A DNA stretch of 64,000 nt from Sphyrna mokarran (Eukaryota): assembly GCA_024679065.1 (NCBI GenBank), contig JAGIQG010000012.1:87110001-87174000 (forward strand). Direction: 5' to 3'. A program made the position numbers and the translations under genes. Of the stretch, positions 913-58,500 are shown piece by piece (the first letter of the stretch is position 1; every line of letters begins with the position of its first letter). The notes under the pieces were generated by a model, which was not told the origin of the DNA, did not search any database, and worked only from the letters and a program-made list of their open reading frames with translations.

Positions 913-1250
913 TGGTTACATTCAGCCGGCTTCCTTTCCCCCAGATCCATCCCCACACTGAGCAGTAATAGACGGCAGTGTCACTGGGCTGCACCATGTT
1001 AGAATGAAGCTGATATTGGAGATGTGCCTGGAACACTGGAAACACTCAGTGAAATTTGAGTTCCATTGTGTGTTGTTCATTATATGCTGTGTTAAAACTC
1101 TCTCCCTATCTTTCCCAGGTAGCTCCTGGTACCAGTGAACATCAGTGTGTGTCACTGCGGCGTTCCTCAGGGTGCACTGTAACCATGCAGTCTGACCCTC
1201 TGTGACACGTTCCACACTCGGAGACTGGATAAGGACTGGAACATTCGCAC
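913..1250 (-). pseudogene. Frameshifted V2 exon of paralog
   Basis: Near-identical to 43531-43875 but 338 nt rather than 345 (7-nt deletion after ILT). The shifted frame continues [28 protein letters not shown]; splice sites are intact. Confidence 0.9.
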
Positions 1251-2602: not shown

Positions 2603-3012
2603 TGATCACATTCAGCTGGATTCAATTTCCAAAGCTCCATCCCTAAATCCCACAGATTGGAGTCACTGAGCTGCACATCTCTGATGGTCCAAATGTAACT
2701 GTTACTGGTAACATCTCTGAAAAGCTGAAATCACTCTAAGAATCCTTATGATTGGTAAAAAGTCAATATGCTGCCCTAAGTTGGTGGATAAATGTACATT
2801 GTATAAATCATGATGTAGAGATGCCAGTGTTGGACTGGGGTAAACTCAGTAAGAGGTCTGGCAACACCAATTTTAAATCCAACATTTAAATGTACAAATT
2901 GACAGTGTAATCCACATTGCTGCTCTGTAAGTTACACCGACGCTTCACTGTTCCACTCTCAGGGAACTTGATAACTCCAGGTGGCTGGATAAGAACTGTG
3001 TCCAATCTACAC
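2603..3012 (-). pseudogene. Disrupted V1 exon of paralog
   Basis: Reads TVLIQPPGVIK..VKRRCNLQSSN; 3' half nearly identical to 37484-37557. Carries frameshifts, stops and a repeat insertion at ~2810-2884; donor mutated to ATGAGT. Confidence 0.87.
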
Positions 3013-5960: not shown

Positions 5961-6168
5961 CTTTAGGCAGGGATTTTGACCCAGCGACTGTAAGGGCTGT
6001 GTGACTTTACAACTCTGCCTCAGAAGATGATGGAAGTGGGGACACGGAATACTTTTAAAGTGGAGGTGGTTGGATTGTTGTTGGGCAAGTTGTTGGGGTG
6101 GATGGGAATGTGCACTTCTAAACACAAGCAGATCAGCCTTAATAATGATTAAAATGTGGAGCAGGCAT

Positions 6169-31462: not shown

Positions 31463-31508
31463 ATGTTTCAGCCATTTCTTTTAGTCCTGACCCTGGTCTT
31501 CATAACGG
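31463..31508 (+). CDS. Exon 1, signal peptide [15 protein letters not shown](G)
   Basis: AAAATG start, hydrophobic 15-mer, phase-1 donor G|GTAAGT; typical IgSF leader exon. Confidence 0.8.
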
Positions 31509-34500: not shown

Positions 34501-37500
34501 AACACTGAGACACACTGTCCCAACACTGTGACACACTGTCCCAACACTGAGGCACACAGTCCCAACACTGAGAACACAGTCCCAACACTGAGACACACAG
34601 TCCCAACACTGAGACACACTGTCCCAACACTGTGACACACTGTCCCAACACTGAGGCACACAGTCCCAACACTGAGATACACAGTCCCAACACTAAAACA
34701 CACAGCCCCAACACTAAGACACACAGTCCCAACACTGAGACACACAGTCCTAACACTGAGACACACAGTCCTAACACTGAGATACACTGTCCCAACACTG
34801 AGACACACAGTCTTAACACTGAGGCACACAGTCCAAACGTGTGCTAAAGATAGAAATCCCAATCATGTTTTCTTGGAAACACTTTTGAGGAGCTGTGACT
34901 TAAAGATAATGGTATTATTGCTTGTCTGTTAATCCAGAAACTGAGCCAATGTTCTGGGGACCTGGGTTCGAACCCTGCCATGGCAGACGGTGGAATTTTG
35001 TATTCAATTAAAAAAAATCTGGAATTAAGAATCTATTGATGACCATGAAACCATTTGTCGGAAAAACCCATCTGGATCACTAATACCCCTTTAGGGAAGG
35101 AAATCCGCCAGCCTTACGCGGTCTGGCCTGCATATGTCTCCAGAATCACAGTAATGTGGTAGACTCTCAACTGCCCTGTGAAATGATGGAGTGAGATGCT
35201 CCGTTCAAGGGTAACAAGACATGTGTTGGGCTTACCAGCCCAAGTCTAATGGAAAGGTGTTTTAAAGACTCTCGGGGCCTCAGTGGTAGATTTATATCTC
35301 TACCAGGACCTGAGGACTAAAGCCTCATTAGCATATTATTCAGACAATTTCAAATGCTAATGAAGGTGAATTAGATGTTTGATGGATGGTTGCAACCAAG
35401 TTGTCTGTTGCGGAGTTAACTTTCCCTCTGTGAGTTTGCTACAGAATGTCAGCTCGATTTGAGGAGGAAGGTTCAGTGAATGAAGAGGAAGAATGTTATT
35501 TTCATCAGCCAAAACTAAACCTTAAAAACCCAGCTGTGCTTGGAGCCAGGGTGAGGAGAGAATATCTGAACTAGTTTCTGAATCCGGTGTTTAGAAACAA
35601 AACTCATCTGGACAAAGTGTTCACTGATGACATGAAAGAATAAAAGAATGGAGTCAGAGCAGAAAGCTCGGATCCAGAGAATGATACGTTTCAACAAGAG
35701 CTGGGTGTCCATAGTGCTACTACAAGACAAATACTCCTCAGTGACATCTGGGAGCTTGTGCCAAAATTGGGAAAACGGTCCCACAAACTTGTCAAGAAAC
35801 AACCTGACATTGTTACATTAACAGAATGTCCCAGACACCACCATCACCCTTCCTGGGTGCATCCTGTCCCATTGGCAGGACAGACCCAGCAGAGGTGGTG
35901 GCACAGTGGTTAGTATTGCTGCCTCACAGTGCTAGGGATTCGGGTTCAACTCTCAGCTTGGGTCAGTGTGTGAAATTTGCATGTTCGCAATGGGATACAG
36001 TTGGGAGGGAATTGCCCTGGGTGTTCTCATGGGCAAGGAAACGTCCTGCTGATTATCACGTACCATCACCCCCTCAGCTGATGAGTCAGTACGTCTCTGT
36101 GTTGAACACTATTTGGAGGAAGCACTGAGGGTGGCAAGGGTACAAAATGTACTCTGGGTGGGGGATCTCAATGTCCTTCACTGAGAGTGGCTCAGCAGTA
36201 GCATTGCAGAACGAACCAGAAGGATTCCAAATGACATTGCTGTTAGACTGGGACAGTAACAGGTGGTGAAATTTAAACTTTGGAAATCATTCCTATGCTA
36301 ATACTGATCTCCTTCAGCTCTTTCTCTCTGTCTTCCCCAGCTGTGTGTAAGTGTTTGGTTTGCCAGCACCCTGAGGGATTGTTGATCACTCCAGTGCAAT
36401 GCAAAAGATAAATTCTAATGGAGGATTCTCAACTTGAAAGATTTTGTGCGATATGAATCTGGCTCAGGATTCAGCCACTCGTCCCCTCGGTCCTGCTGTG
36501 TTATCCATGGTTGATCTGATTGTAACTGTTTCTCTGTGTTCCGAGAGTGCTGAGTATTCCAGCATTGTCTGTTTCCTTTACTTCAGATTTTCAAACATGC
36601 GGTATTTTGCCTGGGTTTTATTTTAGCTAGGTTACAAATTAGTGAAGATAATGCACAGTCATGCATTCATCAATGTACAGATTTTATAACCTGCTTTCAA
36701 ATTAGACTTTATACTTTCTCACTCCCAGAAGGATGTTGAGACATTGGAAAAGGTGCAGATGATTTTTACCAGGATGGTGTCTGGTCGATGGACGATGAAA
36801 AAAGGTTGAACAAAGTTGGATTGTTTTCATTGGAGAATCGGAGGATGAGGGGAGTCCTGATAAAAGTTTACAAGATTATGACAGGTGTGGACGGAGTGGA
36901 TAGTTAGAGTTTTTCCTCAGGGTTGAAGGGTCAAATCCTCAGGGGACATAGATTAAGAGTGAGAGGGGGCAAGTTTAAAAGAGATGTAAGGGGCAAGTTT
37001 TTCACTCAGAGGGTGGTGAGTGTCTGGAACGCGCTGCCGGAGGAGGTGGTGGAAACAGATTCTATAACAATGTTCAAGAGGTACCTGGATAGTTACATGA
37101 ATAGGCAGGGAATAGAGGAATATGGACCACACAAAGGCAAGAAAATATTAAATTAGAGAGGCATCTGTGTCAGCACAGTCTTGGTGGGCCGAAGGGCCTG
37201 TTCCTGCGCTGTACTGTTCTTTGTCCTTTCTGATCTGTTCCAATCTTCAATTATTTTCTCTTTACAGGTCACGAGGCAAAGACAATTCTTGTCCAAACAC
37301 CTGGGGTTGTGAAAGTGCGTGAGGGTGAAGCGGTGAAGTTTTGGTGTAATTTGCAGAGCAGCAACATAAACAACAAAGTGGAGAAATTTGATGTACACTG
37401 GTACCATCCACAAAATAAGAAAAAAATATTACTGAGTCATTATATAAATGGCAAAGTTTACCGCTCAGAAGGATTCTCAGAGCGATTTCAGCTTTTCAGA

Positions 37501-40500
37501 GATGTTGCCAATAACAGTTACATTCTGACCATCAGAGATGTGCAGCTCAGTGACTCCGAAGTCTATATGTGTGGGATTTGGGGACGTATCTTTGGAAGCG
37601 GAACCTGGCTGAATGTGACCAGTGAGTATTTTCTCTGCTTTTATTCCAAATTTTACCACACAATCATCTGATGTTTAGATAAATATGATAAAACATTACT
37701 TTTTAAGCTAATGATGCTGGGTGAACATTTTAATCACACGATAGAGTTAAATCTGGGTCAAACCCAACTGGGGGATTTTCATTGAACAAATGAGTAAGTG
37801 TAAACGATACAAAAAAATCTCACAGAGAATTCAGTCACTCCAAGAAAACAAGCAGTAAAACAGATAGCATTTTGTAGGGAATTGATTGAAGAATCATTAT
37901 GTCTGGTAGAGGAAAAGGAGGCAAAGGGGCTGGCTAAGGACAGAGCTAAGTGTGTACAGTACTGTACTGTGTACAATTCCAGGCAGCCTATTATAGAAAG
38001 GATATTATTAAACTAGAAAGAGTGCAGGAAAGATTTGCCAGGATGCTAATGGAACATCCTCCCCCCTTCCCTAGCCTAAAAAGAGAGAGAGAGAGAGACT
38101 CAGAGGAAGAGCAGGTAAGTTTGTTTGTGTTTTTGTTTGATGAGCTCTAAGGGCTTTGCCTCTCAGGGCTTAAGCAAAAGGGTGAGGCAGGGTAAGTTTA
38201 TAAGTTTTTTTTAGTACCTTTTTCTCTCCTGTATTTCTGAAAAGAGACAATTATGACTCTGAGGCCAGTATATTGTAGCCAGTCAATACGTGGGAGGTCC
38301 GGGAGGCTCCTGGTTTCCCAGACATCCATGTCTGTGCTCGGTGTGAGGAGCTGCGGATCCTATGGGACCGGGTTAAGGAACTGGAACTGCAGCTCGAGGA
38401 TCCTCGTCTCATTAGAGAGAATGAGGAGGCAACTGACAGGAGCTACCAGCAAGTGGTCACACCAGGGCACTGGGAGGAAGGCAAGCGGGTAACTGTTAGG
38501 AAGGGGAAAGCTCGTGTGATGGAGAGCATCCCAGTGGATGTCCCCCTTCATAACAAGTACTCGTGTCTGAGTGCTGCTGGGGGGGACAGCTCACCTGGGG
38601 GAGGCAGCAGTAGCCGCGTCTCTGGAGCTGAGCCCGACCCAGTAGCACCAAAAAGTAAAGAGAAGAGAAGGGCCGTGTTAATAGGGGACTCCATAGTGAG
38701 GGGGTCAGACAGGCGTTTTTGCGGACGCAGACGGGAGTCACGGATGGTGATCTGCCTCCCTGGAGCTGGGATCCGGGATGTCTCTGGACGCATCCCAGAT
38801 ATCTTGAAAGGGGAGGGGGAGAAGCTGAAGGTTGTGGTCCATATAGGGACCACTGATGTAGGTAGGAAGAGGGAACGGGTCATGGAAAGGGATTATAGGG
38901 AACTAGATAGACAGCTGAGAAAGAGGAACGCAGAGGTAGTAATCTCAGGATTAGTGAGAGCAGGAATAGAATGAGGTGGAGGGTGAATGAGTGGCTGAGA
39001 GACTGGAGCAGGGGCAGGGGTTCCAGTTCCTGGATCATTGGGACCTCTTTAGGGGCACGCGTGACCTGTACAGTAAAGACGGGTGGCACTTAAATCCCAG
39101 GGGGACCAATATCTTGGCGGGGAGGATGGCTAGTGCTTCTGAAGGGACTTTAAACTAGAAAGGTTGGGAGGAGGGAATCAAGATGAGGTGACTGGGAGCG
39201 AGGAGGTTAGCTCCCTAGTAGAGAAGGATTATAGACAATATGAGAGGGAGGTTAGACAGGTGATGGAGAAGGGAAGCGCCCAGACTGAGGGTCTGAGATG
39301 TGTCTATTTTAATGCCAGGAGTGTAGTGAATAAAGTGGATGAGCTCAGGGCCTGGATTGCTGTTTGGAAATGTGATGTGGTGGCCATTACAAAGACTTGG
39401 ATGTCTCAGGGACAGGACTGGGTACTTCAGGTGCTAGGATTTAGATGCTTCAGGAATGACAGGGAAAGAGGTAGAAGAGGTGGGAGACTGGCATTGTTGA
39501 TTAGGGACAGTGTCACAGCTGTAGAGAAGGAGGATGCCATGGAGGGACTGTCTACGGAGTCTCTGTGGATGGAAGTTTGCCTGACGAAGACAAAAGTCAA
39601 AAACTCGCAGATTTACTGTCAAATAAATCGGTTGGATTTAAAATTGGTGTTGCCAGAGTCTTACTGAGTTTACCCCAGTCCAACACCGCATCTCTACATC
39701 ATGGAAGTTAGGAACAGCAAAGGGTCGAAAACTTTGCTGGGTATTTTTTATAGGCCGCCCAATAGTGACAGGGATGTTGAAGTGCAGATAGGGAAACAGA
39801 TCCTAGAGAGATGTAGAAATAACAGAATTGTCATGATGGGAGACTTTAATTTCCCAAACATTGACTGGAATATCCCCAGGGTAAGGGGTTCGGATGATGA
39901 GGAGTTTGTTAGGTGTGTTCAGGAGGGTTTCCTGACACAGCATGTGGATAAACCTACGAGAGGAGAGGCTGTACTTGACCTGGTGCTGGCTAATGAACCA
40001 GGACAGGTGTCGGATCTCTCAGTAGGAGAGCATCTCGGGAATAATTCTATCTCCTTCACGATAGCATAGGAAAGAGATAGGATCAGGCAGGATAGGAAGG
40101 TGTTAATCTGGAGTAGGGGGAAATATGAAATCATTAGGCAGGAAATTCGACGAATAAACTGGAAGGAGATGTTCTTGGGGAAAAGTACTGAAGGAAAGTG
40201 GCAGATTTTCAAGGAATGTTTGTCTGGAGCTCTGTACGACAACGTTCCGGTGAGACAAGGAGGTTTTGGTAGATCAAGAGAACCATGGTGCACAAAGGGT
40301 TGTGATGAATCTAGTTAGGAAGAAAAGAAAGTTGTATAATAGGCTCAGGGAGCTAAAGGATGTTAAGGATCTAGAGGCGTATAAGACTTGTAGAAGGGAG
40401 CTTAAAAAGGACATTAGAAGAGCCAGAAGGGGTCTCAAGAAGGCTTTGGCGGGTAGGATTAAGAAGAATCCCAAGGCATTCTACAAATATGTGAAGAGTA

Positions 40501-43500
40501 AAAGGATGAGAAGAGAAGGGATAGGACCTATAAAAGGTGAAGGGGGAAAAGTCTGTGTGGAACTAGAAGAAATGGCAGAGGTGCTTAATAAGTACTTTGC
40601 CTCAGTATTCACAGTGGAGAGTGATCTGGGGGGTTGTACTACAGGAATGCGGCAAACTGAAAAGATTGAGTATGTGACCATTAAGAAAGAGGAGGTGTTG
40701 GAACTGTTAAATTCCATCAAGATAGATAAGTTGCCGGGTCCAGATGGGATGTACCCCAGGTTACTGTGGAAAGTGATTGCAGAGCCCCTGGCGATGATCT
40801 TTGCATCGTCGATGGAGACGGGAGAGGTTCCGGAAGATTGGAGGATTGTGGATGTGGTGCCTATTTTCAAGAAGGGGAATAGGGATAGTCCTGGAAATTA
40901 CCGAACAGTGAATCTGACCTCAGTGGTCGGTAAGTTGATGGAGAGGATTCTGAGAGATAGGATTTATGAGCATTTAGAGAAATTCAATATGATCAGGAAT
41001 AATCAACACGGCTTTGTTAAGGGCAGATCGTGCCTTACGAGTCTAGTTGAATTCTTCGAAAATGTGACTGAACACATTGACAAAGGAAGAGCAGTGAACG
41101 TGGTGTACATGGACTTCAGCAAGGCGTTTGACAAGGTCCCACATGCAAGACTTCTTGAGAAGGTGAGAGGGCATGGGATCCAAGCGGCTTTGGCCTTGTG
41201 GATCCAGAACTGGCTTGCCTGCAGAAGGCAGAGAGTAGTTGTGGATGGGCCTTCTTCTGCATGGAGGTCAGTCAGCAGTGGAGTGCCCCAGGGATCTGTT
41301 CTAGGACCCTTGCTGTTTGTCATTTTCATAAATGACCTGGATGAGGAAGTGGAAGGATGGGTTAGTAAGTTTGCCAACGATAAGAAGGTCGGTGGTGTTG
41401 TGGATAGTCTGGAGGGATGTCTAAAGTTGCAGCGAGACATAGATGGGATGCAAGACTGGGCTGAGAAGTGGCAGATGGACTTCAACATGGATAAATGTGT
41501 GGTGGTCCATTTTGGCAGGACTAATGGGATGAAGCAGTATAATATCAAGGGTAGGAGTCTTGGCAGTGTTGAGGAGCAGAAGGATCTTGGGGTCCGGGTC
41601 CATAGGACTCTTAAGTCTGCCCCGCAAGTGGAGGATGTGGTCAAGAAGGCATATGGTGCACTGGCCATCATTAATAGAGGGATTGAGTTTAGGAGTCGGG
41701 AGGTAATGCTGCAACTTTATAAGACCCTTGTCAGACTTCACTTGGAGTATTGTGTGCAGTTCTGGTCGCCTCACTATAGGAAAGATGTGGAAGCTATTGA
41801 GAGAGTGCAGAGGAGATTTACAAGGATGTTGCCAGGATTGGGGGGCATGTCTTTTGAAGATAGGTTGAGAGAGCTAGGTTTCTTCTCCCTGGAGAGACGA
41901 AGGTTGAGAGGTGACCTGATAGAGGTTTATAAGATGTTGAGAGGAATAGATAGAGTGGATTCTCAGAGGCTATTTCCCAGGTATGAAATGGTCGCTATGA
42001 GAGGACACAGGTTTAAGGTGCTGGGGGGCAAGTACAGAGGAGATGTTAGAGGTGAGTTTTTCACTCAGAGGGTGGTGAGTGAGTGGAATCGGCTGCCGTC
42101 AGTGGTGGTAGAGGCGAACTCGCTGTGGTCTCTTAAAAGACTTCTGGATGAGTACCTGGGATTTAATGGGATTGGGAGTTACAGATAGTTCTATGGCCTG
42201 GTAAGTATAGATATGATCGGCACAACTTGTGGGCCGAAGGGCCTGTTTGTGTTGTAGTGTTCTATGTTCTACGTTCTATGATAGTTTGAGTTATAAGGAG
42301 AGGCTGGATAGACTGGGACTTTTTCCCCTGGAACGTAGGAGGGTGAGGGGTGATCTTGTGCAGGTCTATAAAATAATGAGGGGCACAGATCAGCTAGGAG
42401 TCAATATCTTTTCCCAATGGTAGGAGAGTCTAAAACTAGCGGGCAGAGGTTTAATGTGAGGGGGGAGGGCGGCAATTTCTTCACTCAGAGAGTGGTGTCT
42501 GGAACAAGCTGCCAGAGGTAGTACGAGATGCAGGTTCAATTTTGCCTTTTAAAAAGCGTTTAAACAGTTACATGTTTGAAATGGGTATAGAGGGATAAGG
42601 GTCAAAAGCAGGCAATTGGGAATAGCGTAAGGATTTAAAAGAAGCGACCAGTTTCCACGCTGTAAACCTCTATGATTCTGAAGTGGCAGTGCCAAGTGTT
42701 TCATAATAATAATGTTAATCTCTCAGATTGATTCAGGAAAATTAAGGAATGTGAAATTGACTTTCATAACAACTGAACAATTAAAAAGGTGAGACGTTAT
42801 CGAGCCCCCTCCCAGGAAACTCTCTAATAATGGAATTCCACAAGACTCTCCTCCATGGACTTGGAATTTGGATATTGGGAATGTAACAGGTCTGGGAGGC
42901 TGTGACCTGGAGGGGGGAACACTCCGCCAAGAAGACTGAAATCTGTAAACTAAAAATGTACCATTTACACAGACAAACAAATATAAAACAAAAATATGAG
43001 TGTAAAAGGTGTCACCTCAAAGTCTCACCCAATAGGAAAATCTCAGAAAATCTCAGGGTGTTTTGCCGGTAATTCAGATTCCCTGCAGACAGTCGGGGCT
43101 GGATTTCATCAAGTGTGCTATTCCCAATGGCATCACCAAAAGTGTGAACCGCTTCTCTCTCTACCTTTCCCCATGAATTAAAATCGGGAGCACAGGCAGA
43201 TGTGGACAGATGTGGTTGTTTAAGGTCAAGGAAGCTTTTTATTGGCGAACTTTGCATCAGCTGATGAAGTTATATCTCCAGGTGGAATTTAAAATAACTT
43301 CCACAGTGATGGGGATCGGGGAGAAAGGATAGGGAAGTTGGGAATGGGAAGGGAGGTAGCAGGGATAGCTGGACATCTCAAAATCTTTGAGTTTTTCAGA
43401 TCAGAGCATTTGATGATTTATTTACTATTTCCCCAAAATAATGTCAGCTGATGGATTTTTCATTGAAACATTTGGGATATTCACAACCGTCGCACTATTT

Positions 43501-46500
43501 TTTTAAGTTGTTGATATGTTTCCTTTAAAGGTGCAAATGTTCCAGTCGTTATCCAGTCTCCGAGTGTGGAACGTGTCACAGAGGGTCAGACTGCCCGGTT
43601 ACAGTGCACCCTGAGGAACGCCGCAGTGACACTCACTGATGTTCACTGGTACCAGGAGCTACCTGGGAAAGATAGGGAGAGAGTTTTAACACAGGATACA
43701 ATGAACAACACACAATGGAACTCAAATTTCACTGGGCGCTTCCAGCCTTCTAGAGACAGTTCCAATAACAGCTTCATTCTGACAATCACCATGGTGCAGC
43801 CCAGTGACACTGCCGTCTATTACTGCTCAGTGTGGGGAGATATCAGTGGCAATGGGACACAGCTGAATGTAACCAGTAAGTATGTGAGATTTGGTTAAAT
43901 TCACAATGACATCACGGCACAGAGGGGAGTTCTGTAACCATACACTATCAGAAGGAAGGAGAATGGACTGGAGGATTGGGGTTGTGATGTTGTGACCTTT
44001 TCTCTGACCAATATTCCGTGGGCTGGGAGAATGACATTGTGAACTCTTTGTCCTATACACAGTTCACTTCTGAATAGAATTGATAAACCCAAAAATAAAT
44101 GATTTCTGTTATACAGGTAGGCATTGGAATTCTAAAGCGATTTTAAATTGGACATTACAAAGCATGAATGTGGGAATGATCTGTTGCAATATAACTTAGC
44201 AGTAGATTATTCAATAATTCTCACATTTTTCTTGTTGATTTGATTTGATTTATTATTGTCACATGAATTAGTATATAGTGAAAACTATTGCCTCTTACAC
44301 TTTACAATCAAAGCATCCTGTTCATAGAGAAGGAAAGATGTTGCTCAGTGTAGTGTTTCAGCCATAGCTAGGGTGTAGTGAAAGGTCAAATAAGTCCATT
44401 TAAAGTCTGATGTGAAAGTTCAGTCACAGTCGCAGTTAGTTATCACTAATTCCTTGAATCGATCACCAACTCACCCCACAAACATCAGCCCTGAACCATT
44501 CGAATCAATCTCTGTTGGACCCTCTCGAGCACCTTGTCATCCTCTCTGAAGTGTCACGTCCACAACTGGACGTATGGCTAACTGATATTTTATAATTTCC
44601 TTTTGTTTGGGTTTTGTTTCATATGAAGAATGTTCAGGGTTCAGCACGCATTTTCAAATGCCTTCTGAACTTGTTTGACTAGCTTGAAGAACTGTGATGA
44701 TATAACTTCCTCAGATCCTGAATCCTGTTTGGAATTGTAGAATTTAATCGCATTGCCTCCCCTCAAGCTAATGAAACTTTGCTACTTTCCGCTTCTCTGC
44801 AGTAAATTTTGTCTGTTATGTCTCCACCTATTTCACTAGTCTGTCAATGTCACCTGGAGCCTGTCACCATTCATCTCCTTGCTGCGTTACTGAGGTCATG
44901 TCCCCTCCCACCGAAATATCACCAGTGTGAAAAAACACAATTCTATTACCACTTTTTACATTACAAGACATTTGAAATTAATCATTACAGATGGTGCAAA
45001 GATATTTAAGTTTTTTTTTACATCAATCATTTTGCACTCTGAGCTGCTTCAATGCAGTTGTGCTACTGGTAATATTCACCATATAGATTCAATGTGAGTT
45101 ACACAGGCCGAGGGGATTTTATATAATTTCCCTCCCCTTGGTTCACTCTGGCTGAAAGGTCTATAGACAGTGACCTTCTGCAATTGTGCCTCTATGGTGT
45201 CTGCCCCAAGCTTGAGTGTGTCCCTCAGCATGTAGACCCAGACCTTGGAATGTGCCAGTCTGTAACACAAAGTCGAGGGCAATTTTTTATATTGGAAACC
45301 AACAACTTTGGGGCAGACTAAAGAACATTTTTTTGCCGAGCAGACACATATTTCTACCATCATACTGAGCTTCCCCTATTCTCTATCTCCCTGAGGAGGA
45401 GTCATTGAACACAGCCTCTGCACACACTTGTTTAAGATCCAGGCCAGAAATTACAAAGTGTTTTGTGAAGTTATCCTAGATCCTAAGTTTTCACATTTGC
45501 TTTGGCACAAGGTGTGATTCACACTCTAGTTACGAATCTAGGTATGATTTCTTTGATAAAAGGAAGCTTTTATTTAAGAACACAATTAGAATATAATAAA
45601 AAAGAATTAGCATAACTTTTTACCAATTACAAGACTTAAACACGACATAATGTAATTCCTAACAGCTAGCTATCTCTGTTGTTCCAATCCCACTGATATA
45701 GACTCATCTTCAGTCTTAGCACAGAAAGCAAGTATGCTCATGTGATACAGCATCTTCAGCTTTGTAACAGCTATGGATATGAATCCAGACCAGCTGTTTG
45801 TAGAGAAAGATACCCTCAAAACATCCAAACCTCAGAGAGGTAAACTTAATCTTAGACATACAGAGAATGGAAACTCCCACTCCAAAGAGAGGGAAAACCT
45901 TCTGAAAACAAAACTCAAAACTGGACTTTTCTGCGAAGCGTAGCTGCTCATAGACACATGACATAAACTGTCAATCACCCACAATCTATACTCTGCAATC
46001 CCTAAGGACAACTAAAACCACAGAATATTACATTAGTCCAGATTAAAATCAACACGATATCAATTATACTGCCTCAGTAACAATAAAGAAAACTGGCTAC
46101 AGACAACAAGGTGCTAACAAATTTCCAAGGGCTGCAGAAACATCCTGCAGAAAAATATCATTCAAATACCTTTCTTAAAAGCAGTGTCACACTCCTGCCA
46201 TCAGTTTTGAGAGGGCGTATGGGGAATGAGTCAATCATTCTCAGATTCAGATACGCACGTCCCAGCCTTACTTTGACATTGTTAAGAACATTAAACAAGA
46301 AAGGAATAAGACGGCTGTTTTTTGGACAGTCCCTTTTCACAAACTCACTTTACAGACAATGAAATACATTGAAATAATACAATAATTGAATATGATATAA
46401 TAATTAAATACAAAATAATTTAATTAATAATTAAATAATAAATATTAATAAATAAATAATTTAAATTTAATAATTTGAAATTTAATTTAAACTTTAAATT

Positions 46501-49500
46501 AAATTTAATTTAATAAATTTAAATTTAATAAATAAGTTAATAATTAAATAATAAGTATTAATTAATTATTTAATTAATAATTAAATACAATACAATATAA
46601 TAATTAAACACAATGAAATCCTTGCTCTAAGAAGCACATTTTGTCTTTCATTGCTAGAGGGATGGAGTTTAAAAACAGCGAGATTATGCTGCAGCTGTAC
46701 TCCAGATGAGGTCACACCTGGAGTACAGTGTGCAGTTTTGGAGGGAGGACAGAGGAGATTCACTCGGTTGATTCCAGAGCTGAGAGGGTTGGCTTATGAG
46801 GAGAGACTGAGTAGACTTGGGCAATACTCATTGGAATTCAGAAGAATGAGGGGAGATCTTATAGAAATATATAAGATTGTGAAGGGAATAGATAAGATAG
46901 AAGCAGGGAAGTTGTTTCCACTGGTGGTGAAACTAGAACTAGGGGGCATAGCCTCAAAATAAAAGTGGAACAGATTTAGGACTGAGTTGAGGAGGAACTT
47001 CTTCACACAAAGGGTTGTGAATCAGAGGAATTCCCTGCTCAGTGCAGCAGATAACGCTACCTCATTGAATGCTTTTAAGGCAAGGATGGAAACATTTTTG
47101 AATAGTAAAGGAATTAACAGTTACAATGCATGAAGAGATCAGCCATGATCTTATTGAATGGCGGGACAGGCTCGAGGGACCAGCTGGCCGACTCCTGCCC
47201 CTAATTCATGTTCTTATGAATGGCCAATTGGTTTAGAGATCTTTAAATAATGATGTGGGAGATTTCACATCTAACTGGACTTATTTTATCATCTCAGTTC
47301 CGTAATAGTTTGTCCTAAAGAGTTACTCTAATGCTGTACTGAGAGTTGATGGCCTATGGAATTCTCTGCACTGCGGACTGACTCCAAGAACAGATTGCTT
47401 CAGTAAACCACAGCTGACATTCTCGACCACTTTGTCCAGCCAATCAGCCTGGAATCTGGCATATTAAAGATAAATGAATTGTTGAATGTTGAATGATAGA
47501 GAAATGTATCAATGTGTGTTAAAGTTCCATCTATTTCCCACCCACAGCTCCATTGTCTGACCCAGTCCTCATGCAGTATCCAACAGTCAGCAAGGTGACA
47601 GAGGGTCAGACTGTCGACTTACAATGTGCCATGTACACTGCCAGTGTGATTGACACTGATGTCCACTGGCATTACCAGAGAGCTGGCTACCACAGTGAGT
47701 GGCTGATCAGCCAGTTTGTGAATGGCACCGTTACCAAGTCCCGGGATTCCCACCACCGTTTCCAGCCTTCCCGGAATGTCAACAGCAACAGCTACATTCT
47801 GACCATTGTGAATGTGACCCTCAATGATACAGCTGTGTACAGATGCAGTGTGTGGAGCTACATCTATGGAGCAGGGAGCCAGCTCAATGTCATTGGTAAG
47901 TCAATGCTAACTAACATTGTCAGATTGACAGAAACATTACTGGAACCAGTTAACTTACCCACAATAGCTTAGACAAATTATTTCATTGGACTTCATTTAT
48001 TATTGCTAATATAGTGAAAAGTATTGTTTCTTGTGCATTATGCATAACAAATGTGTAGAGTATAGGGCTAATGGTAGGACTCTCAATAGTGTTGATGATC
48101 AGAGGGATCTTGGTGTATATGTTAATAGATCCTTGAAAGTTGGCAATCAAGTCGATAAGGTTGTTAAGAAGGCATATGGAGTCTTAGCTTTTATTGGTAG
48201 GGGGATTGAATTTCGGAGCCTCAACGTCATGTTGCAACTGTACAAAACTCTAGTGCGGCCGCACTTGGAGTATTGTGTGCAGTTCTGGTCCCCACATTAT
48301 AAGAAAGATGTGGAGGCATTGGAGAGGGTACAGAGGAGGTTTACCAGGATGTTGCCTGGTATGGAGGGCAGGTCTTATGAAGAGAGGCTGAGGGATTTGA
48401 GGTTGTTTTCGTTAGAAAGAAGGCGGCTAAGAGGAGACCTTATTGAAACATATAAGATGATTAGAGGTTTAGATAGGGTGGACAGTGATAGCCTTTTTCC
48501 TAGGATGGAGAAAGCTAGCACGAGGGGACATAGCTTTAAATTAAGGGATGGTGGTTATAGGACAGATGTCAGAGGTAGGTTCTTTACCCAGAGGGTGGTA
48601 AGGGTATGGAATGCTCTGCCTGCGTCAGTTGTAGATGCACCAAGTTTGGTGGCGTTTAAGAGGTTAGTAGATAAGTTTATGGACGAGAAGGGAATGGTTT
48701 AGGTTAGAGGGTCATTGCTTGTTCCTAATTGGTTGGCGCAACATCGAAGGCCGAAGGGCCTGCTCTGCGCTGTAATGTTCTATGTTCTAAAGCATACCGT
48801 TCATAGAAAAGGAAATGAGAGAGTGCAGAATGTAGTCTTACAATCATAGCTGGGGTGTAGAGAAAGGGTGTAGAGAAAAATGGAACCATAAACAGACACA
48901 ATACTGTACTGGGTGTGGAATCGAGAGCCGGAATGTTCTTTGTAAAATGAAATATTCAAGAATTAAATAGTGGAGATATAGAATTGTAGAAACATAGTAG
49001 ATAGGAGCAGGAGGAGGCCATTCAGCCCTTTGAGCCTGATTCATTACTATCACAGCTGATCATCCAACTCAATAGCCTAATCCTGCTTTTTCCCCATTAA
49101 CCTTTGATCCCATTCACCCCAAGTGCTATATCCTGCTGCCTCTTGAATACATTCAATATTTTAGAACATAGAACATAGAACATTACAGCGCTGAACAGGC
49201 CCTTTGGCCTTCGATGTTGCGCCAACCAATTAAGAAAAAGCAATGACCCTCTAACCTAAACCATTCCCTTTCCATCCATAAGCCTATCCACTGACTACTT
49301 AAACGCCCCCAAACTTGGCGCATCTACAACTGCAGCAGGCAGGACATTCCATACCCTCACCACCCTCTTGGGTAAAGAACCTACCTCTGACATCCATCCT
49401 ATAACTACCACCCCTTAATTTAAAGCTATGTCCCCTCGTGCTAGCTTTCTCCATCCGAGGAAAAAGGCTATCACTGTCCACCCTATCTAAACCTCTAATC

Positions 49501-52500
49501 ATCTTATATGTTTCAATAAGGTCTCCTCTTAGCCGCCTTCTTTCTAATGAAAACAACCTCAAATCCCTCAGCCTCTCCTCATAAGACCTGCCTTCCATAC
49601 CAGGCAACATCCTGGTAAACCTCCTCTGTACCCTCTCCAATGGCTCCACATCTTTCTTATAATGCGGGGACCAGAACTGCACACAATACTCCAAGTGCGG
49701 CCGCACTAGAGTTTTGTACAGTTGCAACATGACGTTGCGGCTCCGAAATTCAATCCCCCTACCAATAAAAGCTAAGACTCCGTATGCCTTCTTAACAACC
49801 TTATCGACTTGATTGCCAACTTTCAGGGATCTATGCACATATACACCGAGATCCCTCTGTTCATCAACACTATTAAGAGTCCTACCATTAGCCCTATACT
49901 CTACACATTTGTTATTTCTGCCAAAGTGAATTACCTCACACTTTTCCGCATTAAACTCCATTTGCCACCTCTCGGCCCAGCTCTGCAACTTGTCTAAGTC
50001 TCTCTGTAAACTATAACACCCCTCTTCACTATCTACCACTCCTCCAACTTTGATGTCATCAGCAAATTTTGGCATCAATTACTTCCTGTGGTAATGAATT
50101 CCACAGGCTCACCACTCTTTGGGTGAAGAAATGTCTCCTCATCTTCTTCCCAAATGGTCTACCCTGAATCCTCAGACTGTGACCCCTGGTTCCAGACAAC
50201 CCCACCATCGGGAACATCCTCCCTGCATCTACCCTGTCTAGTCCTGTTAGAGTTTTATAGGTCTCTGTGAGATCATTTGTCCGAACTCCAGCGAAAACAA
50301 TCCTAACCTGGTCAGAAGAGATCAAAGATATTTCTATGGTCCATGGACGCGGGAGTCACTGACAAAGCCAGAATTTATTGCCTGTTCCTAAATACCCTTG
50401 GGAAGATGTTGATAAAGAGCCTTCTTGAACTTCTGCAGGCAGAGATGTTTGATAGAACTGAGTGGCTTGTGAAGCTATTTCAGTAAATAATTCATTTCTA
50501 CCACGTTGCTGTGGCTCTGAGGTTATATTCTGGCCAGACTTGGTCAGGACAGCAGATTTCTTACCCTACAGGATTTTGGTGAATCAGATAGATTTTTTAA
50601 ATAATTTGGTAGTTTCACGGTGCCCATTAGAGTCATAGAGGTTTACAGTATGGATGTCCATGCCGCCCATTACTCACACTAAGATTTTTCTTTCAAATTT
50701 ATTTAATTGATCTGTATTCAAAATCCCCTGCTGCCCGGGGACTCGGGTAGCAATGGAGAAAAGAAAAGCAGGTGTAGGTTACATGGCCTTTGAACCTGCT
50801 CTAACATTCGGAGAGAACAGCAATGAAGGAGGAAAATACAGAGAGAGAGAGAGTGGGGAAGCATCGTTCTCACCGGCCTGATCACCTTTCCTGAGTTTCC
50901 TCACACCTCATCAATGACATCACGAGGTTCACATCCATAAAAGGCGAGAACCTAATTCTAATGTTTTTGAATTCATTATCATTATCCAGCCCCGTCACAT
51001 GATTTCCAACCCCCCCTCCCCTCAATATTCAAACCTCGCGCTGTGATGTCATGTTGGAGTAGGTTAGTACAGCTGTTTGAAGATGTGATTCAAGCGAGGG
51101 AGCCTTCCTGAGAACGTGAGGGTAAGTATCGGCCAACGAGGGGATCTCTCTGAGAATGTGAGGGTAAGTGACACCGCAACTGGTTTTGCTGTGGGGAGAG
51201 GTTGGGCAAAGAGCAAGCGAGCAATTGTAATGGAGGACTCACTCATTAGAGGCACAGACAGGTGTTTCTGTGGCTGCAATTCCAGGATGGTGCTTTGCCT
51301 CCCTGATGCCAAGGTCAAGGATGTCTCTGAATGGTTGCAGGACATTCTTAGGGGGCTGGTGAGCAGCCAGAGGTTGTTGTACATGTTGGTACCAACATCA
51401 TAGATAGGAAAGGGGATGAGGTCCTGAAATATGAACACAGAGAGTTAGGCAGAAGGCTAAAGTGCAGGACCTCAAAGGTAATAATTTCAGGACCATTGCC
51501 ATGTGTTCCTGATGTTCCTGGTACCGGGAGCTATCTGGGAAAGATAGGGAGAGAATTTTAACACAGGATACAATGAACAACACACAATGGAACTCAAATT
51601 TCACTGAGTGTTTCCAGCCTTTCAGGCCGCTGCCATGTGTTCCTGAGATTATGAATAGGAAGATTAGGCAGATGAATGCCAGGCTTGAGAGCTGGTGCAG
51701 GAGGGCAGGACTTTAGACTTTTGGATCACTGGCATCTTTTCTAGGGAAGGGCTAATCTGTTCAAGAGGGATGGGTTATATTTGAACTGGAAGGGGCAACT
51801 AACATCCTGACGGGGAGATTTGTTAGAGCCGCTCGGGAGGGTTCAAACTAGTTTGGCAGGGAATGGGATCCAAAGCACTAGGGAGACAGGAGAGAAATTT
51901 GAGGACAACATGGAAGTCAAAGAGAGCACATTAATTAGTAAAGACACGGTCAGTAATTCGAGTACCAGACAGATCAGACAAAAGCGAGAGCAAGTGAAGT
52001 TCAGATTAAGCTGCATTTACTTCAATGCAAGAGGCTTGATGGGTAGGTGGGACTGGGATATTATAGCAATTACTGAAACATGGCTAAGAGAAGGACAGGA
52101 CTGGCAGCTCAGGCAGTTGTATAAAACGTTGGTTAGACCTCATTTGGAATACGTCCAGTTCTGGTCACCTTACTACCAGAAGGATGTGGAGACTCTGGAG
52201 AGAGTGCAGAGGAGATTTACCAGGATGCTGCCTGGTATGGAAGGTCTGAGTTAAGAGGAGAGGGGAGAGATACAAAAGTGTCCAGAGGGGCAATTTTTTC
52301 AGACAGAGAGTGGTGAGTGTCTGAAACAAGCTGCCAGCGGTAGTAGTAGAGGTGAGTACAATTCTATTCTTTAAAAAGCATTTAGGCAGTTACATGGGTA
52401 TGATGGATATAGAGAGATATGGACCAAATGCAGGCAATTGGGATTAGCTTATAGAACATAGAACATAGAACATAGAACATAGAACACTACAGCACAGAAC

Positions 52501-55500
52501 AGGCCCTTCGGCCTTCGATGTTGCGCCGACCAATATAAAAAGCAATGCCCCTCCAAACTAAACCATTCCCTTCTCTTCCATATACTTATCAACTAACCTC
52601 TTAAACGCCACCAAACTTGGCGCATCTACAACTGCTGCAGGCAGGGCATTCCACTCCCGAACCACCCTTTGGGTAAAGAACCTGCCACTGATATCCGTCC
52701 TATAACTATCACCCCTTAATTTAAAGCTGTGTCCCCTCGTGCTATGGGTTTAAAAAAAAAGGGCAGTGTGGACAAGTTGGACCAAAAGGCCTGTTTTCTT
52801 GCTGTAAACCTGTGTGACTCTAATTATCACCCTATAAAGGGAATTTCCTGAGAATGTCAGGGTAAATATTGCCCAACAAGGGAGCGAGAGGGTAAGAATC
52901 TCTGCTGGGAGTGTCAGGGTAAGTATTGTCCAACAAAGAGATTTTCTTGGGAATATGAGGGTAAGTATTGCCCCTCGGGTATTTTCCTGGGAGTATAAGA
53001 GTAAATATTGTCCCTGGGGAATTTTCCAGGGAGTGTGAGGTTAAGTATTGCCCCTGGGAAATTCAGGAAACAGATTTGCGTGTATAATTTTGTAAAGATA
53101 ACTTAAAAAATTTCCAACAAATTGAGGTTTTTATTTGAGCTTTTCTGGGTTTTTAACCCAAATGAAATCAGTATTTATCAACATTGTCATCTCCTGATGG
53201 AGGAGACAATTGTGATTGGTTGATTGCTTTGTTGAATTCCTCCATTCATTCCGATAAATCTACTGGATTCACATTTAGCTCTCGCTGTTATACCTTTCAG
53301 GGCCCTCTCTACACTCTACCAAACTGTAACTTCCAATCCAATCACCATCCACTATCTATCAACCCATCCACAGCCAAATCTCCCAATGCTGGATCAATGG
53401 ATGACTGCGAATGGGCTGAAAGTCTTGTTCTCATTTTACAGAGACACTGATCATTGACAATCAGCAATGTGGGGCCCACTGTGTGACGGGCCCATCACGG
53501 TGGCTCAGTGGTTTGTGCTGCTGTCTCACAGCACTAGGGACTGGGTTCGATTCCCGACTTGGGTCATTGTCTGTACGGAGTTTGTATGTTCTCATTATGT
53601 TTGTGTAGTTTTCTCTGGGCGCTCCAGTTTCCTCACCCATTCCTCCTTCTGCACTGTAGGCATTCTAGGAGACCTCTGTTTCTGAGCAGCAACATACAAT
53701 GGCCTTTCCAGACAGTCTGATAAACATGCTACCCTGTCAGTCATACCATAGAGTCATAGAGCTTTATAGCAGAGAAACAGGCCCTTTGGCCCAACTTGTC
53801 CATGCTACCCTTCTTTTTCAATGACACATTGAACCTCCTGTTTTTATTTACCCGAAAGGAAAATTCTGCAAGATAAACCTCAGTAATCTTTGAATATGTT
53901 GCAGCAGAACAATGTAGTCTTTACATGGATTTATCTTTCATCCAATTGCTGTTTGTGGGAACCATGTTAATGGTTGTAGTAAATACGGTTTAATTCAATC
54001 ATCTGACTTTTCAAAGCTGTTGCAGTGAACAAGCTTCCCAATTGGTCCATTCACTTCCCAGGCTACCGAGTGATATTTGTAAAACTTATACTCCTGGTCT
54101 GTGGGTGCCGCTGGCTGGGCTAGCGTTTATTGCCCCTGCCTGAGAGCAATTAAGAGTCAACTACATTATTGTGGGCCTGGAGTCACATGTAGACCAGACC
54201 AGGTGAGGATGGCAGATTTCTTCCCTAAAGGACATGAGTGAACCAGATGGGTTTTTACAACAATTGACAATGGCTTCATGGTTTTAGTTCCAGATTTATG
54301 TTGACTTCATCTTTCACCAGCGTGATGGGTTTTGAACCCGAGTGTGACTGCAGGAATTTACTGTATATGGATAAAATTCCCTCCAACTAACCGTGTTCTG
54401 GCTCTGGCTGTCTCTAATGAGTTCCTTGCCACCTGAACTCTTGATATTACAGTGCAATTCCAAAGCTTTCAGTTACTCCTGAGAGCAGCAACAAAGTGTA
54501 GATATCTAATTTCTGTCTGTGATTAAATTGGCGTCACAAATAGTCACCATTTATCAGACCCAACACAATTTCATTCTCGGGAAAATTAATGGAAATTATA
54601 ATTGATATTTTTCTTTGAAAAGCAACAATCTCTGGAATTTTATTGCCCTGCTCGCCACGGGAATCGGAGCAGGGAAAGAGCAGACCATGGGAAGGTCCAC
54701 TGAGCTCAGGTGGAATTTTGTGGGCTGTAAAATCCCACCGCAATCTCTCACATCGATTGTATATCCAAGAGCCTGATCCTCTACCTTCCATTGTTCCACT
54801 CTGTGTGATCACCATGAGTCCAGCTGTTAGCTACACCATCTGTCTGACTTGATGCCCAATAGAAATGATGGAAGGAAAAGATCTCTGCCTCTCCCATTCT
54901 AACCTAGTTTTCTCAAGGACAGGAATCCAACTCACTGCCCCATAATGTGGTGGAGTCTGAATCGAAGGAGATAGATATATTCCTGGCCAAAAAAAGGGTT
55001 GAGGGGGTATGGAAGGAAGGTGGATTTGAGACCAGGTCGAGATCAGCCAGGATCTGATTGAATGGCGGAGCAGGCTTGAACGGCTGAATTTGCCAACTTC
55101 TGCTCCTAATTCTTGTGTTCCTCATTCTTTACTTCACAAATGTTAAACTATACAAAATCTCTTACAGAAGATGTTGAAAGCCGGCCTATCATCAGCATTA
55201 TTGCCTGCGCCCTGGCACTTGTTCTCCTCCTCTGCATATTTATTATCACAATATGCTGTGTGAAAAAATGGGCGTGTTTCCAAAGCAGATTAAAGCCAGA
55301 ACGGTAAATATAACTTACCTTCCTCTCCCACTTGATGATAATGTTGTGTTGAATTTGATTGCAGGGATCAAATCAGCCGCAGAATCTGGATAAAGGAGTT
55401 TTGCTTTTTGTGATTTTCTTTCCTGGGCAGATAAATACAGAGTATCAAAGGTTGGATGGGGGAAATGGTTTTTCCCCCGAGCCCTTTTGTAAGAGTGGGT

Positions 55501-58500
55501 GTCAGCTGTCACATTGAAGGAATGGAAAAATTAAACACTTTAGATAAATGCTCCCATTGGCGGGTACACTGCAAATGCAAAACTGTCACTACTGGAAACA
55601 CAGCGTGAGCACAGAAAGCGTTCTTTCTAGTTGTATCACAGCTTGATACGGCTCCTGCACTGCTCCAGAACACGAGGAACTGCAAAAAGTCATGAATGTA
55701 GCACAATCCATCACACAAAGCCAGCTTCCCATCCATTGACTCTGCTACACTTACTGCTGCCTCAGCAAAACAGCCAGCATAATTAAGGACCCCACGCACC
55801 CAAACATTCTCTCTTCCTCCTTCTATCATCGGGAAAAAGATACAAAAATCTGAGGTCACGTACCGACAGACTCAAGAACAGCTTCTTCCCTGTTGCTGTC
55901 AGACTTTTGAATGGACCCTACCTTGCATTAAGTTGATCTTTCTCTACACCCTAGCTATGACTATATTTTGCACTCTCTCGTTTCCTTCTCTATGAACATT
56001 ATGCTTTGTCTATATAATACACAAGAAACAATACTTTTCACTAGGCTAATGCATGTGACAATAATAAATCAAATCAAATCAAAGATTCAGAAAACAGTAG
56101 CTATTGCAGAACATTTTGATACAAATGGTGATGAAAACTTTGTCAAATGCAACTGATAACTCAGGGTAAATATGAAATGCACGAAAATGTGGCTCTCATG
56201 AAATGCTCAACTTCACCCCATTGAAATGATTAAATGGGAATTCCTGTGTATAATTTCTGCGGTTTTGATAAGTAACTCTTCCTCATTATATCATGACATA
56301 TAATCCTAACCCCCTTCTACAACTTACACCTTTAACATCACTGCACCTTCACACTCACTCAATGACCATGGATTCCTGCTCAGTTATCTCCTAATATTGA
56401 ATCCAGCTGCATCCTTAAGGAAATTTGGTCACAATTGGTTGAATCGCTCAGTCGTACCACTGTTAGAGTGGAGACCATTCTGCCCATTGAGTCAATGCCA
56501 ACACTCAGCAGAGGATTCAGTCAGTTTAATGATTATTAATCTAGCTGGGAATTTAATTGTCCCAAGTGCCTATCAAATGGCTTTTGCCATCAATCATTGA
56601 CCCTGTTTCCAGTTCATTACCACTTGTTGACTGAAAATTTCTTTCATAAATCCTGACACTACCCCCCACCACCACCCCGTCCTTCCCTAATCCTGTCACC
56701 CTTTGCTCATTATCTTAATTCTGTCTCCTGCAGTCCTTCTGCTGTCAGCAAATACAGCTGTTCTTTGTTTTATGGAGACCTGTCCACCTCAAAGTGCTCA
56801 TATCACACCAACCAACCTATCATTGCATGTGTGAAGTTTTATTGTAAAGAGTAAGAGATACACTTTGTCGTCACAAATGTTCAACCAAGGAGTGGGACGA
56901 GGTAATCTTTTCTGCTCAATGTGGACTCAGTGTTAAATTGTCTTATTGAAATGTTGTAAATGAATCATTGATGGTCTTTCTGTCTGCTTTGCCCAGACCC
57001 CATGAAGAGGAATTGGATACAGTGTACGCACATGTCTATGGTAAGAAAGCCTTTCAGTACATTGCAAACGGGTTATTCCAAATTCTATTAATTGCTTATT
57101 ATTATTTCTAAACATCAGTTGTTTGAAATTTGTACCGATCATTGTTTTCTCAGAAAAATGGACAATTTTCATGTTTCCGTTGTAATGACCCAGGTCACAG
57201 ACTCCAAGGTGTTTTATGAAGTTAGCCTCGACCCTCAGTTTCACAATTGATTTTGGCTTTTGGGCGATTTCACTTTGGGTATGATTCAACCAACCCACTC
57301 ATCAGAGTTTATTTAAGGACACAGTTAAAATGTAACAAAAGTAAATTAGCATAACTCCTTGGGCAGGCTCTAAGGGCTGGATGGCCTACTCCTGCTCCCA
57401 TTTCTTATCATGTCCTATCAATTACCAAGATTTTAACTAAACACAATATAAACTTTAACGGCTAGCTATCTCTGTTGTTCCAAGTTAAACACCATCCCAT
57501 AGACACACACCCTTTTTGAGTCTTGGCACAAAAAACAAGTGTTCTCCACATGATACTGGATTTTCAGCTTTTTTATATCTTCTGTGAATTGGTCTTTTGA
57601 ATGTTTGATTAAATCTCTGAGCCTTCTCAGCCCTGGAACTTTCAGCAAGTCTCTAAAGAGAGAGAGAGATACTATCTGCACCCACCAGCTTCTAACAGTA
57701 ACTGAGAAACAAAACTAAAACCTGCACTTTTCTGTGGAAAAAAACTGTCCCCGGGCATCATCTGACCTGTCAATTATCCCCCAAATCAAGATCAAATCCT
57801 TAAAGGACCATTAAACCCCTGAATGCTGCATTAGTCTGGATTAAAATCAGTGTGTTATCAATTATAGTGTCTCAGTAGCAATAAAGGGAACTGATCACAG
57901 AGATCACAGTGCCGACAGCTTCCAGGACCTACCAGAAACATCCTGCAGAGAAACATGATTAAAATACATCTGTTAAAAGGCAAAGTATCATCACACAATC
58001 ACTCAACCTCTGCACCAAGCAGACTGCACAGGAATGCTCCCTCATTCATACAGCCTGATATTTTCCCCAGCCACTCTGAACTATCAGGGTGTTAGCACCA
58101 ATTAGAGATACTAAGAGTTAGTTATAAAGCTGTGTTGAGATAACAGCACAAGAAGGTTTTTGTCCATTAATTCCTGGCTGAATTCAAACCCCAGTTTCCA
58201 GTGCTTATTAGACATTGCACCTTCATCACCTTCGCACGGGAATTTAAACCACTGATCCTCAACTCTTTCATTTGGTTCTACATAGATGTGCAGCACTCTC
58301 TCAGCACTGACCCTCTGACAGTGCGGCACTCCCTCAGCACTGACCCTCTGACAGTGCGGCACTCCCTCAGCACTGACCCTCTGACAGTGCGGCACTCCCT
58401 CAGCACTGACCCTCTGACAGTGCGGCACTCCCTCAGCACTGACCCTCTGACAGTGCGGCACTCCCTCAGCACTGACCCTCTGACAGTGCGGCACTCCCTC

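Follow-up and report, generated by a model that had tools for sequence, protein, structure and literature searches.

Genes in which V and J (variable and joining) sequence lies in one unsplit exon are usually read as precursors of immunoglobulin (Ig) and T-cell receptor (TCR) genes. A window of 64,000 nucleotides from Sphyrna mokarran (G000:C224, 87.11-87.17 Mb), by which we mean the whole stretch of DNA analyzed, contains a receptor gene with three such exons and raises the question of whether an unsplit VJ exon must be older than rearrangement. The gene belongs to what is apparently an as yet unnamed receptor family of cartilaginous fish (chondrichthyans), and this family points the opposite way. 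The explanation we prefer, and consider probable, is that an exon of the Ig light chain (IgL) sigma-2, joined in the germline, was recruited to form inhibitory receptors before the chimaera and shark lineages diverged. An antibody light chain is an unusual origin for a receptor family, and it is reasonably supported here.

The initial annotation of the window described antigen-receptor-like V domains that share the motif C-x-x-W-x-x-I-[FSYW]-G-x-G, with six residues between the Cys and the J aromatic position. The six-frame translation of the window contains this motif four times, versus none in 100 shuffles. The plus-strand matches are [22 protein letters not shown] and [11 protein letters not shown], and the minus-strand match is CSVWGWIWGKG near position 970. 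The three plus-strand exons with the motif are V-A (37268..37621, 354 nt), V-B (43531..43875, 345 nt) and V-C (47548..47895, 348 nt), whose third complementarity-determining regions (CDR3) read GIWGRI, SVWGDI and SVWSYI; their Pfam V-set scores, 53.5, 64.5 and 58 bits, are all above the cut-off. Each exon runs unsplit from the A strand through a J-like G strand to a GT donor, and the AG/GT ends together with the lengths make the V exons symmetrical, phase 1-1. No canonical recombination signal sequence (RSS) was found in the window, and no heptamer near the ends of the three V exons. The second shared motif, RFQxxR[DN]xxxNS[YF]ILTI, is present in all three plus-strand exons but is not intact in the frameshifted minus-strand paralog, and V-B has a Ser at the J aromatic position. 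Each domain has only two invariant Cys, with no extra C-C' disulfide.

The predicted model of V-B (predicted local distance difference test score, pLDDT, 91) has an antigen-receptor V fold, best matched by antibody and TCR V domains (best Z 19.6, root-mean-square deviation 1.7, 114 aligned). The structural comparison proposed with the initial annotation confirmed the fold but, with heavy-chain V (VH), TCR V and CD8 all within about 3 Z, could not rank the lineages, and the absence of CD300, B7 and nectin from its top 50 carries no weight. VpreB came at rank 27 among VH/VHH rows in Foldseek, a PDB sequence search was dominated by multi-domain antibodies, and an ESM Atlas search returned only generic light-chain clusters.

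Eight plus-strand exons give an open frame of 478 amino acids (aa) for a non-rearranging type I membrane protein, made up of a leader, V-A, V-B, V-C, an uncharged transmembrane (TM) segment and a tail with the tyrosine motifs TVYAHV, LFYADL and TVYAAV. The inferred leader exon (31463..31508; 15 codons plus 1 nt, phase 1) runs from ATG to GT and is hydrophobic; a duplicated copy, 98% identical, precedes a paralogous V-A exon by about 10 kb. No transcript contig showing the leader-to-V-A junction was found, and in one contig from a related species the end of V-A is followed directly by the beginning of a V-B exon. V-C is covered from 47548 to 47892-47897 by contigs of 4/4 runs (four studies), all with extra letters beyond; these contigs come from related species or paralogs and are only presumed to be RNA, with no listed run recorded as such. 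The exon at 55168..55303, matched by tblastn to the horn-shark ortholog P0046, encodes stalk, TM segment and juxtamembrane part in open frame. Two short exons with AG/GT ends follow, one carrying the motif TVYAHV, which resembles an immunoreceptor tyrosine-based switch motif (ITSM) and has a TVYAxV counterpart in orthologs (56997..57040), the other a spacer that keeps the frame (59452..59495). The last coding exon (62460..62579), which matches the tail of P0004 at 64% in tblastn, ends the translation with LFYADL, similar to an immunoreceptor tyrosine-based inhibitory motif (ITIM), the ITSM/ITIM-like TVYAAV and a stop. An octamer-like 7/8 match lies 79 nt before the leader, and 8 other leader exons have no exact octamer before them; neither observation was used as evidence. 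The model is complete without a C1 exon, and no row from contig C224 was among the 150 best C1-set matches (150 of 490 candidates scored); lacking a C1 domain, the window gene is not a light chain. The 478-aa model is 69% identical to a horn-shark protein over 463 aa and 38% identical to a three-V chimaera protein, and its closest named homologs are Mustelus proteins at 83-84%. A three-domain model of the horn-shark ortholog is uninformative on domain packing (predicted template modelling score 0.35).

The same features extend to a family of 132 proteins. Six residues separate Cys104 from position 118 in 332 of 352 domains (14 were unparsed and 6 differ), so the short fixed CDR3 noticed in the window is a family property. 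The label "J aromatic" holds only in part: among 338 parsed domains position 118 is Ser in 114, Tyr in 105 and Phe in 57, and it is aromatic in only 163. A triplication had been proposed from the three symmetrical exons, which is understated for a family whose proteins have 1-9 V domains. Domain types are common to sharks and rays. A TM segment is predicted in 92 of the 132 proteins and ITIM/ITSM-like motifs in 71 of these 92, among which no convincing charged TM was found (of three that were flagged, one was a signal peptide picked in error). Among 110 homologs, 109 bear shark or ray names and the remaining one carries no taxon; chimaera members were added by a HMMER library search, and no member outside cartilaginous fish was identified among the best 150 of 3788 matches. 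Database names (IGSF3-like, pIgR-like, perlecan-like, SIRP-like) mask the unity of this single family. In the literature searched, the elephant-shark supplement included, we found no description of it, which does not establish its absence from print. Three divergent members (P0121, P0122 and P0060), on the same chromosomes as others, have a non-J-type first domain and short tails.

Which antigen receptor is closest? With the family profile, 69 sigma-2 proteins scored 87.8-134.8 bits; in the library search (131 new proteins) all domains above 86 bits belonged to the family or to sigma-2-type light chains, among them a horn-shark cluster named 'Igsigma-2', and the next domain scored 68. The top-scoring sigma-2 chain, P0306 (134.8 bits), aligns without gaps to V-B (48% identity, 112 aa) and to V-C (45%). 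In this genome, the best V match to a whale-shark sigma-2 query was a family exon (47%). On average, family V domains are 39% identical to elasmobranch sigma-2, 35% to coelacanth sigma-2 and 23-31% to the other Ig/TCR/UrIg/CD8/NCR3 groups. P4, M27, Q71, R74 and I82 (V-B numbering) are each found in most family rows and most sigma-2 rows but in 0 of 24 other V rows, so that the extended DE-loop motif is a sigma-2 signature. The initial annotation had taken it as typical of IGLV5, VpreB and TCR-gamma; these relatives were not borne out, and shark TCR-gamma V, which shares only W107, lacks the DE-loop motif in 5/5 sequences read (shark TRGV rows have heptamers after CAxW). Another light-chain-like gene, with germline VJ, a single C1 exon and a nine-residue CDR3, lies on the minus strand of contig C994 (L142:208-558, L154:7224-7571; about 512-515 kb); it has orthologs in six other shark genera and groups with sigma-2 as a separate lineage.

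In the first phylogenetic tree, with 48 shark outgroups, the family fell at 100/99 on the side of Ig, TCR, CD8, NKp30 and UrIg as opposed to CD300-, B7-, nectin-, TIM- and Siglec-like rows, as expected of antigen-receptor-type V domains, and outside both the kappa/lambda clade and TCR-gamma. The first trees were built without canonical sigma-2 (their C772 rows are lambda-type). No firm grouping with CD300/TREM, B7 or nectins appeared, since grouping with CD300 (p=0.032) and with nectin/B7 (p=0.021) was rejected; the shark CD300-like labels are our reading of the sequence, and the set was drawn up without MDIR itself. Once sigma-2 rows were added, a clade of family plus sigma-2 was recovered at 91/90 with 55 rows, at 97/97 with 52 rows from which CDR3 and J had been removed, and at 98/98 with 46 rows under a mixture model with UrIg as outgroup and without the long non-receptor rows. 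To save time, rows were thinned from one tree to the next, and VpreB, mammalian IGLV5, NITR, SIRP and PD-1 are outside the row sets. The approximately unbiased (AU) test on the 46-row set rejected a basal family (p=0.015) and placement with TCR-gamma (p=0.020) or lambda/kappa (p=0.004). Likelihood mapping of 3000 quartets gave 949:65:255, with 949 for family plus sigma-2 and 255 for a basal family. These trees, tests and quartets together make the sigma-2 affinity of the family well supported, its rooting with sigma-2 as opposed to a basal position moderately supported, and its nesting within sigma-2 not supported.

The short CDR3 is not evidence that the exon predates RAG. Among the 69 sigma-2 proteins the loop mostly has 8, 10 or 11 residues (17 unparsed). 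A six-residue EVWGYI followed by F/YGGG occurs in three, all from carpet sharks (zebra, bamboo and whale shark; three genera), and shows that a sigma-2 join can yield a loop of the family type. Germline-joined sigma-2 is known: horn shark has a split gene, skate a joined one and nurse shark a mixture of both, and the joined nurse-shark chain pairs with IgM1gj (PMC5192425, PMC4279169). Germline joining by RAG-like cutting has been shown for shark kappa genes (PMC2193156). That the three carpet-shark chains are the counterpart of the joined nurse-shark gene is a guess.

The carpet-shark chains also bring in an older shared join, in which one joined xVWGxI sigma-2 gene in the chondrichthyan (or gnathostome) ancestor founded the receptors and survives as the carpet-shark joined light chain, its frameworks homogenized by gene conversion. 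The junctions are near-identical (SVWGYI/SVWSYI in the family, EVWGYI in the chains); P0306 combines the top sigma-2 score with gapless alignment to V-B and V-C; a clade of family plus carpet-shark chains was not rejected (p=0.27 in the 46-row set, p=0.074 in the 52-row set); and the skate chain P0317 resembles a mosaic of two sigma-2 lineages. However, the frameworks of the EVWGYI chains nest with ordinary carpet-shark sigma-2 (86/90; 96/93), so the chains are most simply explained by a separate, younger join that gave the same loop, and the six-residue form is limited to those 3 of 69 proteins. We regard a shared ancient join as rather unlikely.

Several results weigh against a germline-joined sigma-2 origin. 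With 49 rows under the mixture model, family plus sigma-2 reached only 67/78, and one chimaera domain was drawn to NCR3/CD8. The 46-row set was picked after earlier trees had been seen, and on it monophyly of sigma-2 without the family, which bears on nested versus sister placement, had p=0.35. On the 52-row set with distant outgroups (LG+G4) the AU test rejected nothing (basal 0.29, NCR3/CD8 0.26, TCR-gamma 0.059, lambda/kappa 0.074). In likelihood mapping 1416 quartets (47%) were unresolved, and nesting relative to coelacanth was a tie (408:360:141). Sigma-2 sampling comprises one bony-vertebrate sequence and no chimaera sequence; none turned up for gar, bichir, turtle or chimaera in the searches made. 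Among the 150 of 848 candidates scored in this assembly there was no canonical sigma-2 locus, although Mustelus has one, and an assembly gap or a loss could be the reason. Finally, the germline-joined state of the EVWGYI chains is presumed from their being genome gene models with one junction in three genera.

An alternative is a pre-RAG relic, in which V and J were never separated in this exon, the family is the sister group of rearranging V as a whole, and sigma-2 has simply kept the most ancestral sequence. The family exon would then be a surviving counterpart of the V-J exon into which the RAG transposon inserted, with sigma-2 as its nearest rearranging descendant and the six-residue loop as the pre-RAG state, and an inhibitory multi-V receptor would stand at the root of Ig and TCR. 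VJ in a single exon without RSS is what such a relic should look like; the basal position is not rejected with distant outgroups (p=0.29), and 255 of 1269 resolved quartets favor it. Before true sigma-2 rows were included, NCR3, CD8-like rows and the VJ-C1 gene related to sigma-2 formed a group with the family (93/84); this early NCR3/CD8 grouping was weak and faded after sigma-2 was added, except in the 49-row tree. Other relics of this kind, UrIg and UrIg2, are described in sharks (PMC12227049), and sigma-2 is joined in coelacanth, gar and turtle (PMC5985310). Against it, the basal position is rejected with UrIg as outgroup, the residues private to the family and sigma-2 are missing from UrIg, NCR3, CD8-like and all other Ig/TCR rows, the family has no C1 domain, and the best 150 matches hold no member outside cartilaginous fish. 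The locus also lies apart: Ig, TCR, MHC-type and UrIg-like genes, as we read their sequences, sit on contigs other than C224, with UrIg-like and NCR3-like V on C1548 and IgH/TCR on C994, so that the family shares a contig neither with the MHC/UrIg genes nor with IgH/TCR. The initial annotation had left germline joining and a pre-RAG origin side by side; germline joining is favored, and we hold it quite unlikely that the family is a never-split sister of rearranging V, and just as improbable that its exon copies the one invaded by RAG.

If the exon came from a light chain, do its domains still pair with VH? Sigma-2 chains keep their VH-facing residues (Q44 in 38/52, P50 in 47/52, Y103 in 52/52, F/Y118 in 46/52). 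Type B family domains have S118 in 95/119 and M or T at position 50 in 105/119, and type C domains have Y103 in 0/47; residues were numbered by their distance from Trp41 and Cys104, a procedure that is unreliable for type A domains. In every family domain type some VH-facing residues are gone and glycosylation sites have been gained, with at least two N-glycosylation sequons in 231 of 268 family domains versus 5 of 69 sigma-2. Judging from these residues, the domains likely no longer form a variable fragment (Fv) with VH.

Substitution counts suggest another surface for binding. This genome has 12 intact B/D-type exons; in the 10 that remain once two protein-identical duplicates are dropped, residues 27-67, from CDR1 to C'', have 44 non-synonymous and 4 synonymous changes (dN/dS, the ratio of non-synonymous to synonymous rates, 3.4; Fisher p=0.006). 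Frameworks have 19 and 10 (dN/dS 0.59) and CDR3/G 18 and 7; these are parsimony counts, which gene conversion could distort. The pattern suggests that binding is likely via the CDR1-C-C'-C'' face. ITIM/ITSM tails recruit SHP-1/SHP-2, and immune receptor families typically show birth-and-death clusters with pseudogenes and an excess of non-synonymous change in one stretch. By analogy, the family likely consists of inhibitory immune receptors that would act as a leukocyte brake.

The same origin with another function would make these proteins adhesion or decoy molecules or scavengers of soluble ligands, with tyrosines for trafficking or co-stimulation. The heavy N-glycosylation would fit, as would YxN-type tails in 27 of the 92 TM forms and some very short tails, and UrIg genes are expressed in liver and gill, not lymphocytes (PMC12227049). 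We consider such a function very unlikely, because three tyrosine motifs with ITIM/ITSM consensus are kept from rays to sharks and the cluster combines birth-and-death evolution with the excess of non-synonymous change on one stretch.

Under the sigma-2 origin, the six-residue CDR3 would have arisen when RAG joined V to J of sigma-2 in the germline of an early chondrichthyan. The joined exon would then have been copied away from the Ig genes and placed before TM and tail exons, and the phase 1-1 V module multiplied before the chimaera/shark split, while the V domains ceased to pair with VH. A ligand on the surface of a cell would be bound by the outer domain with its CDR1-C-C'-C'' face, the part that diversifies among paralogs, and the fixed short CDR3 would play a structural role. 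Ligand binding would lead to tyrosine phosphorylation of the ITIM/ITSM motifs and recruitment of SHP-1/SHP-2, and leukocyte activation would be damped.

The gene is one of a cluster. Of the 24 V-exon matches that a genome search (150 of 445 candidates scored) gave on C224 at 87.11-87.96 Mb, five are broken; leader, TM and tail exons are interspersed in both orientations. Within the window, a head-to-head pseudogene on the minus strand comprises a frameshifted V-B/D paralog exon with CDR3 SVWGWI (925..1250; motif scan and genome search) and a decayed V-A remnant (2638..2999; two tblastn pieces, one with two stops), and an orphan V-B fragment lies in intron 4 on the plus strand (51504..51629; 71% over 42 aa, one TGA). 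Elsewhere in the cluster, three otherwise open V-B exons have Ser for the first canonical Cys (C224:87264261, 87274408 and 87351670), and eight near-identical leader exons of a second type lie in inverted segmental duplications at 87.19-87.41 Mb, several without a nearby downstream V exon. Introns of the gene are filled with LINE-type retrotransposon copies (window 38279-42200, 48010-50078 and elsewhere), including an almost complete copy between V-A and V-B. Long minisatellite arrays, whose open frames look non-coding, occupy 6100-14900, 33440-34860 and 58290-59170.

A scan of 149 open reading frames around the cluster, outside C224:87.574-87.85 Mb, found a butyrophilin/B7-like gene, an FAD-oxidase exon, a nicotinic receptor alpha subunit, DUF4772, HlyIII, MCM3 and a TRIM gene. 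Four of the neighbors we take to be GULO, CHRNA2, ZNF395 and PAQR8, with human equivalents at 8p21/6p12. The butyrophilin/B7-like V and C exons lie about 240 kb from the gene (L031:389-892, 1949-2443 and 6481-6999; 86.91 Mb), and their product is a possible ligand candidate. On either side the cluster is bordered by related coiled-coil open frames that have no clear Pfam family (L033:383-1006, L032:6678-7226 and L105:2753-3532; 86.93 and 87.99 Mb).

If the sigma-2 origin is true, a RAG-joined antibody exon more than about 400 million years ago founded an innate receptor family found across chondrichthyans, and germline joining gains a lasting evolutionary product outside the antigen receptors. 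The family also supplies candidates for the inhibitory natural killer (NK) and myeloid receptors of sharks, and it cautions against taking an unsplit VJ as evidence of pre-RAG age.

Compared with IgL sigma-2 itself (sigma-cart, type I, NS5), the family has the same V signature residues, loop lengths and W107, and the six-residue xVWGxI junction of the carpet-shark chains. It differs in having no C1 domain, 1-9 tandem V domains, a TM segment with tyrosine-motif tail, an eroded VH interface, glycosylation, and a locus apart from the Ig clusters. CD300/TREM/MDIR, SIRP and PD-1 are by inference alike in combining a V-type ectodomain with an ITIM/ITSM tail but differ in V lineage, as judged from the CD300-like rows, and CD300/TREM/MDIR carry extra C-C' cysteines, which the family lacks, as it does C1 domains. 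NKp30/NCR3 has a charged TM residue for an adaptor, whereas the window TM is uncharged. NITR of bony fish have a layout of V plus I domains. They are also clustered non-rearranging VJ-type V genes, which encode inhibitory or activating type I receptors and evolve by birth and death (PMC7916673). Unlike NITR, with one or two Ig domains, the family has ectodomains made entirely of sigma-2-type V.

PRARP has C1 domains. UrIg, UrIg2, PRARP and NKp30 likewise have a VJ domain in a single exon (PMC12227049, PMC10751288). They sit in the MHC or antigen-receptor complex, and the family does not; UrIg and UrIg2 have C1 domains, and V identity to the family is only 23-24%. We rejected an identity of the family with UrIg2, given its lack of C1 domains and the position of UrIg2-like genes on C446; two of these stand head to head (VJ with a CGCG strand, plus C1 exons), off C994, at L159:4588-5028, L160:117-614, L150 and L161 (G000:C446, 25.48-25.50 Mb). 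UrIg, UrIg2, PRARP and NKp30 are read as precursors of rearranging genes, whereas the family looks like a descendant. The closest parallels are marsupial TCR-mu V-mu-j and shark IgM1gj, each a fixed, reused germline-joined V exon with a short invariant CDR3, (PMC7615758, PMC4279169); V-mu-j, reused within a TCR, is the nearest precedent. V-mu-j and IgM1gj remain within antigen receptors, whereas the joined exon considered here would have moved out of the Ig/TCR system to give rise to a separate multigene receptor family.

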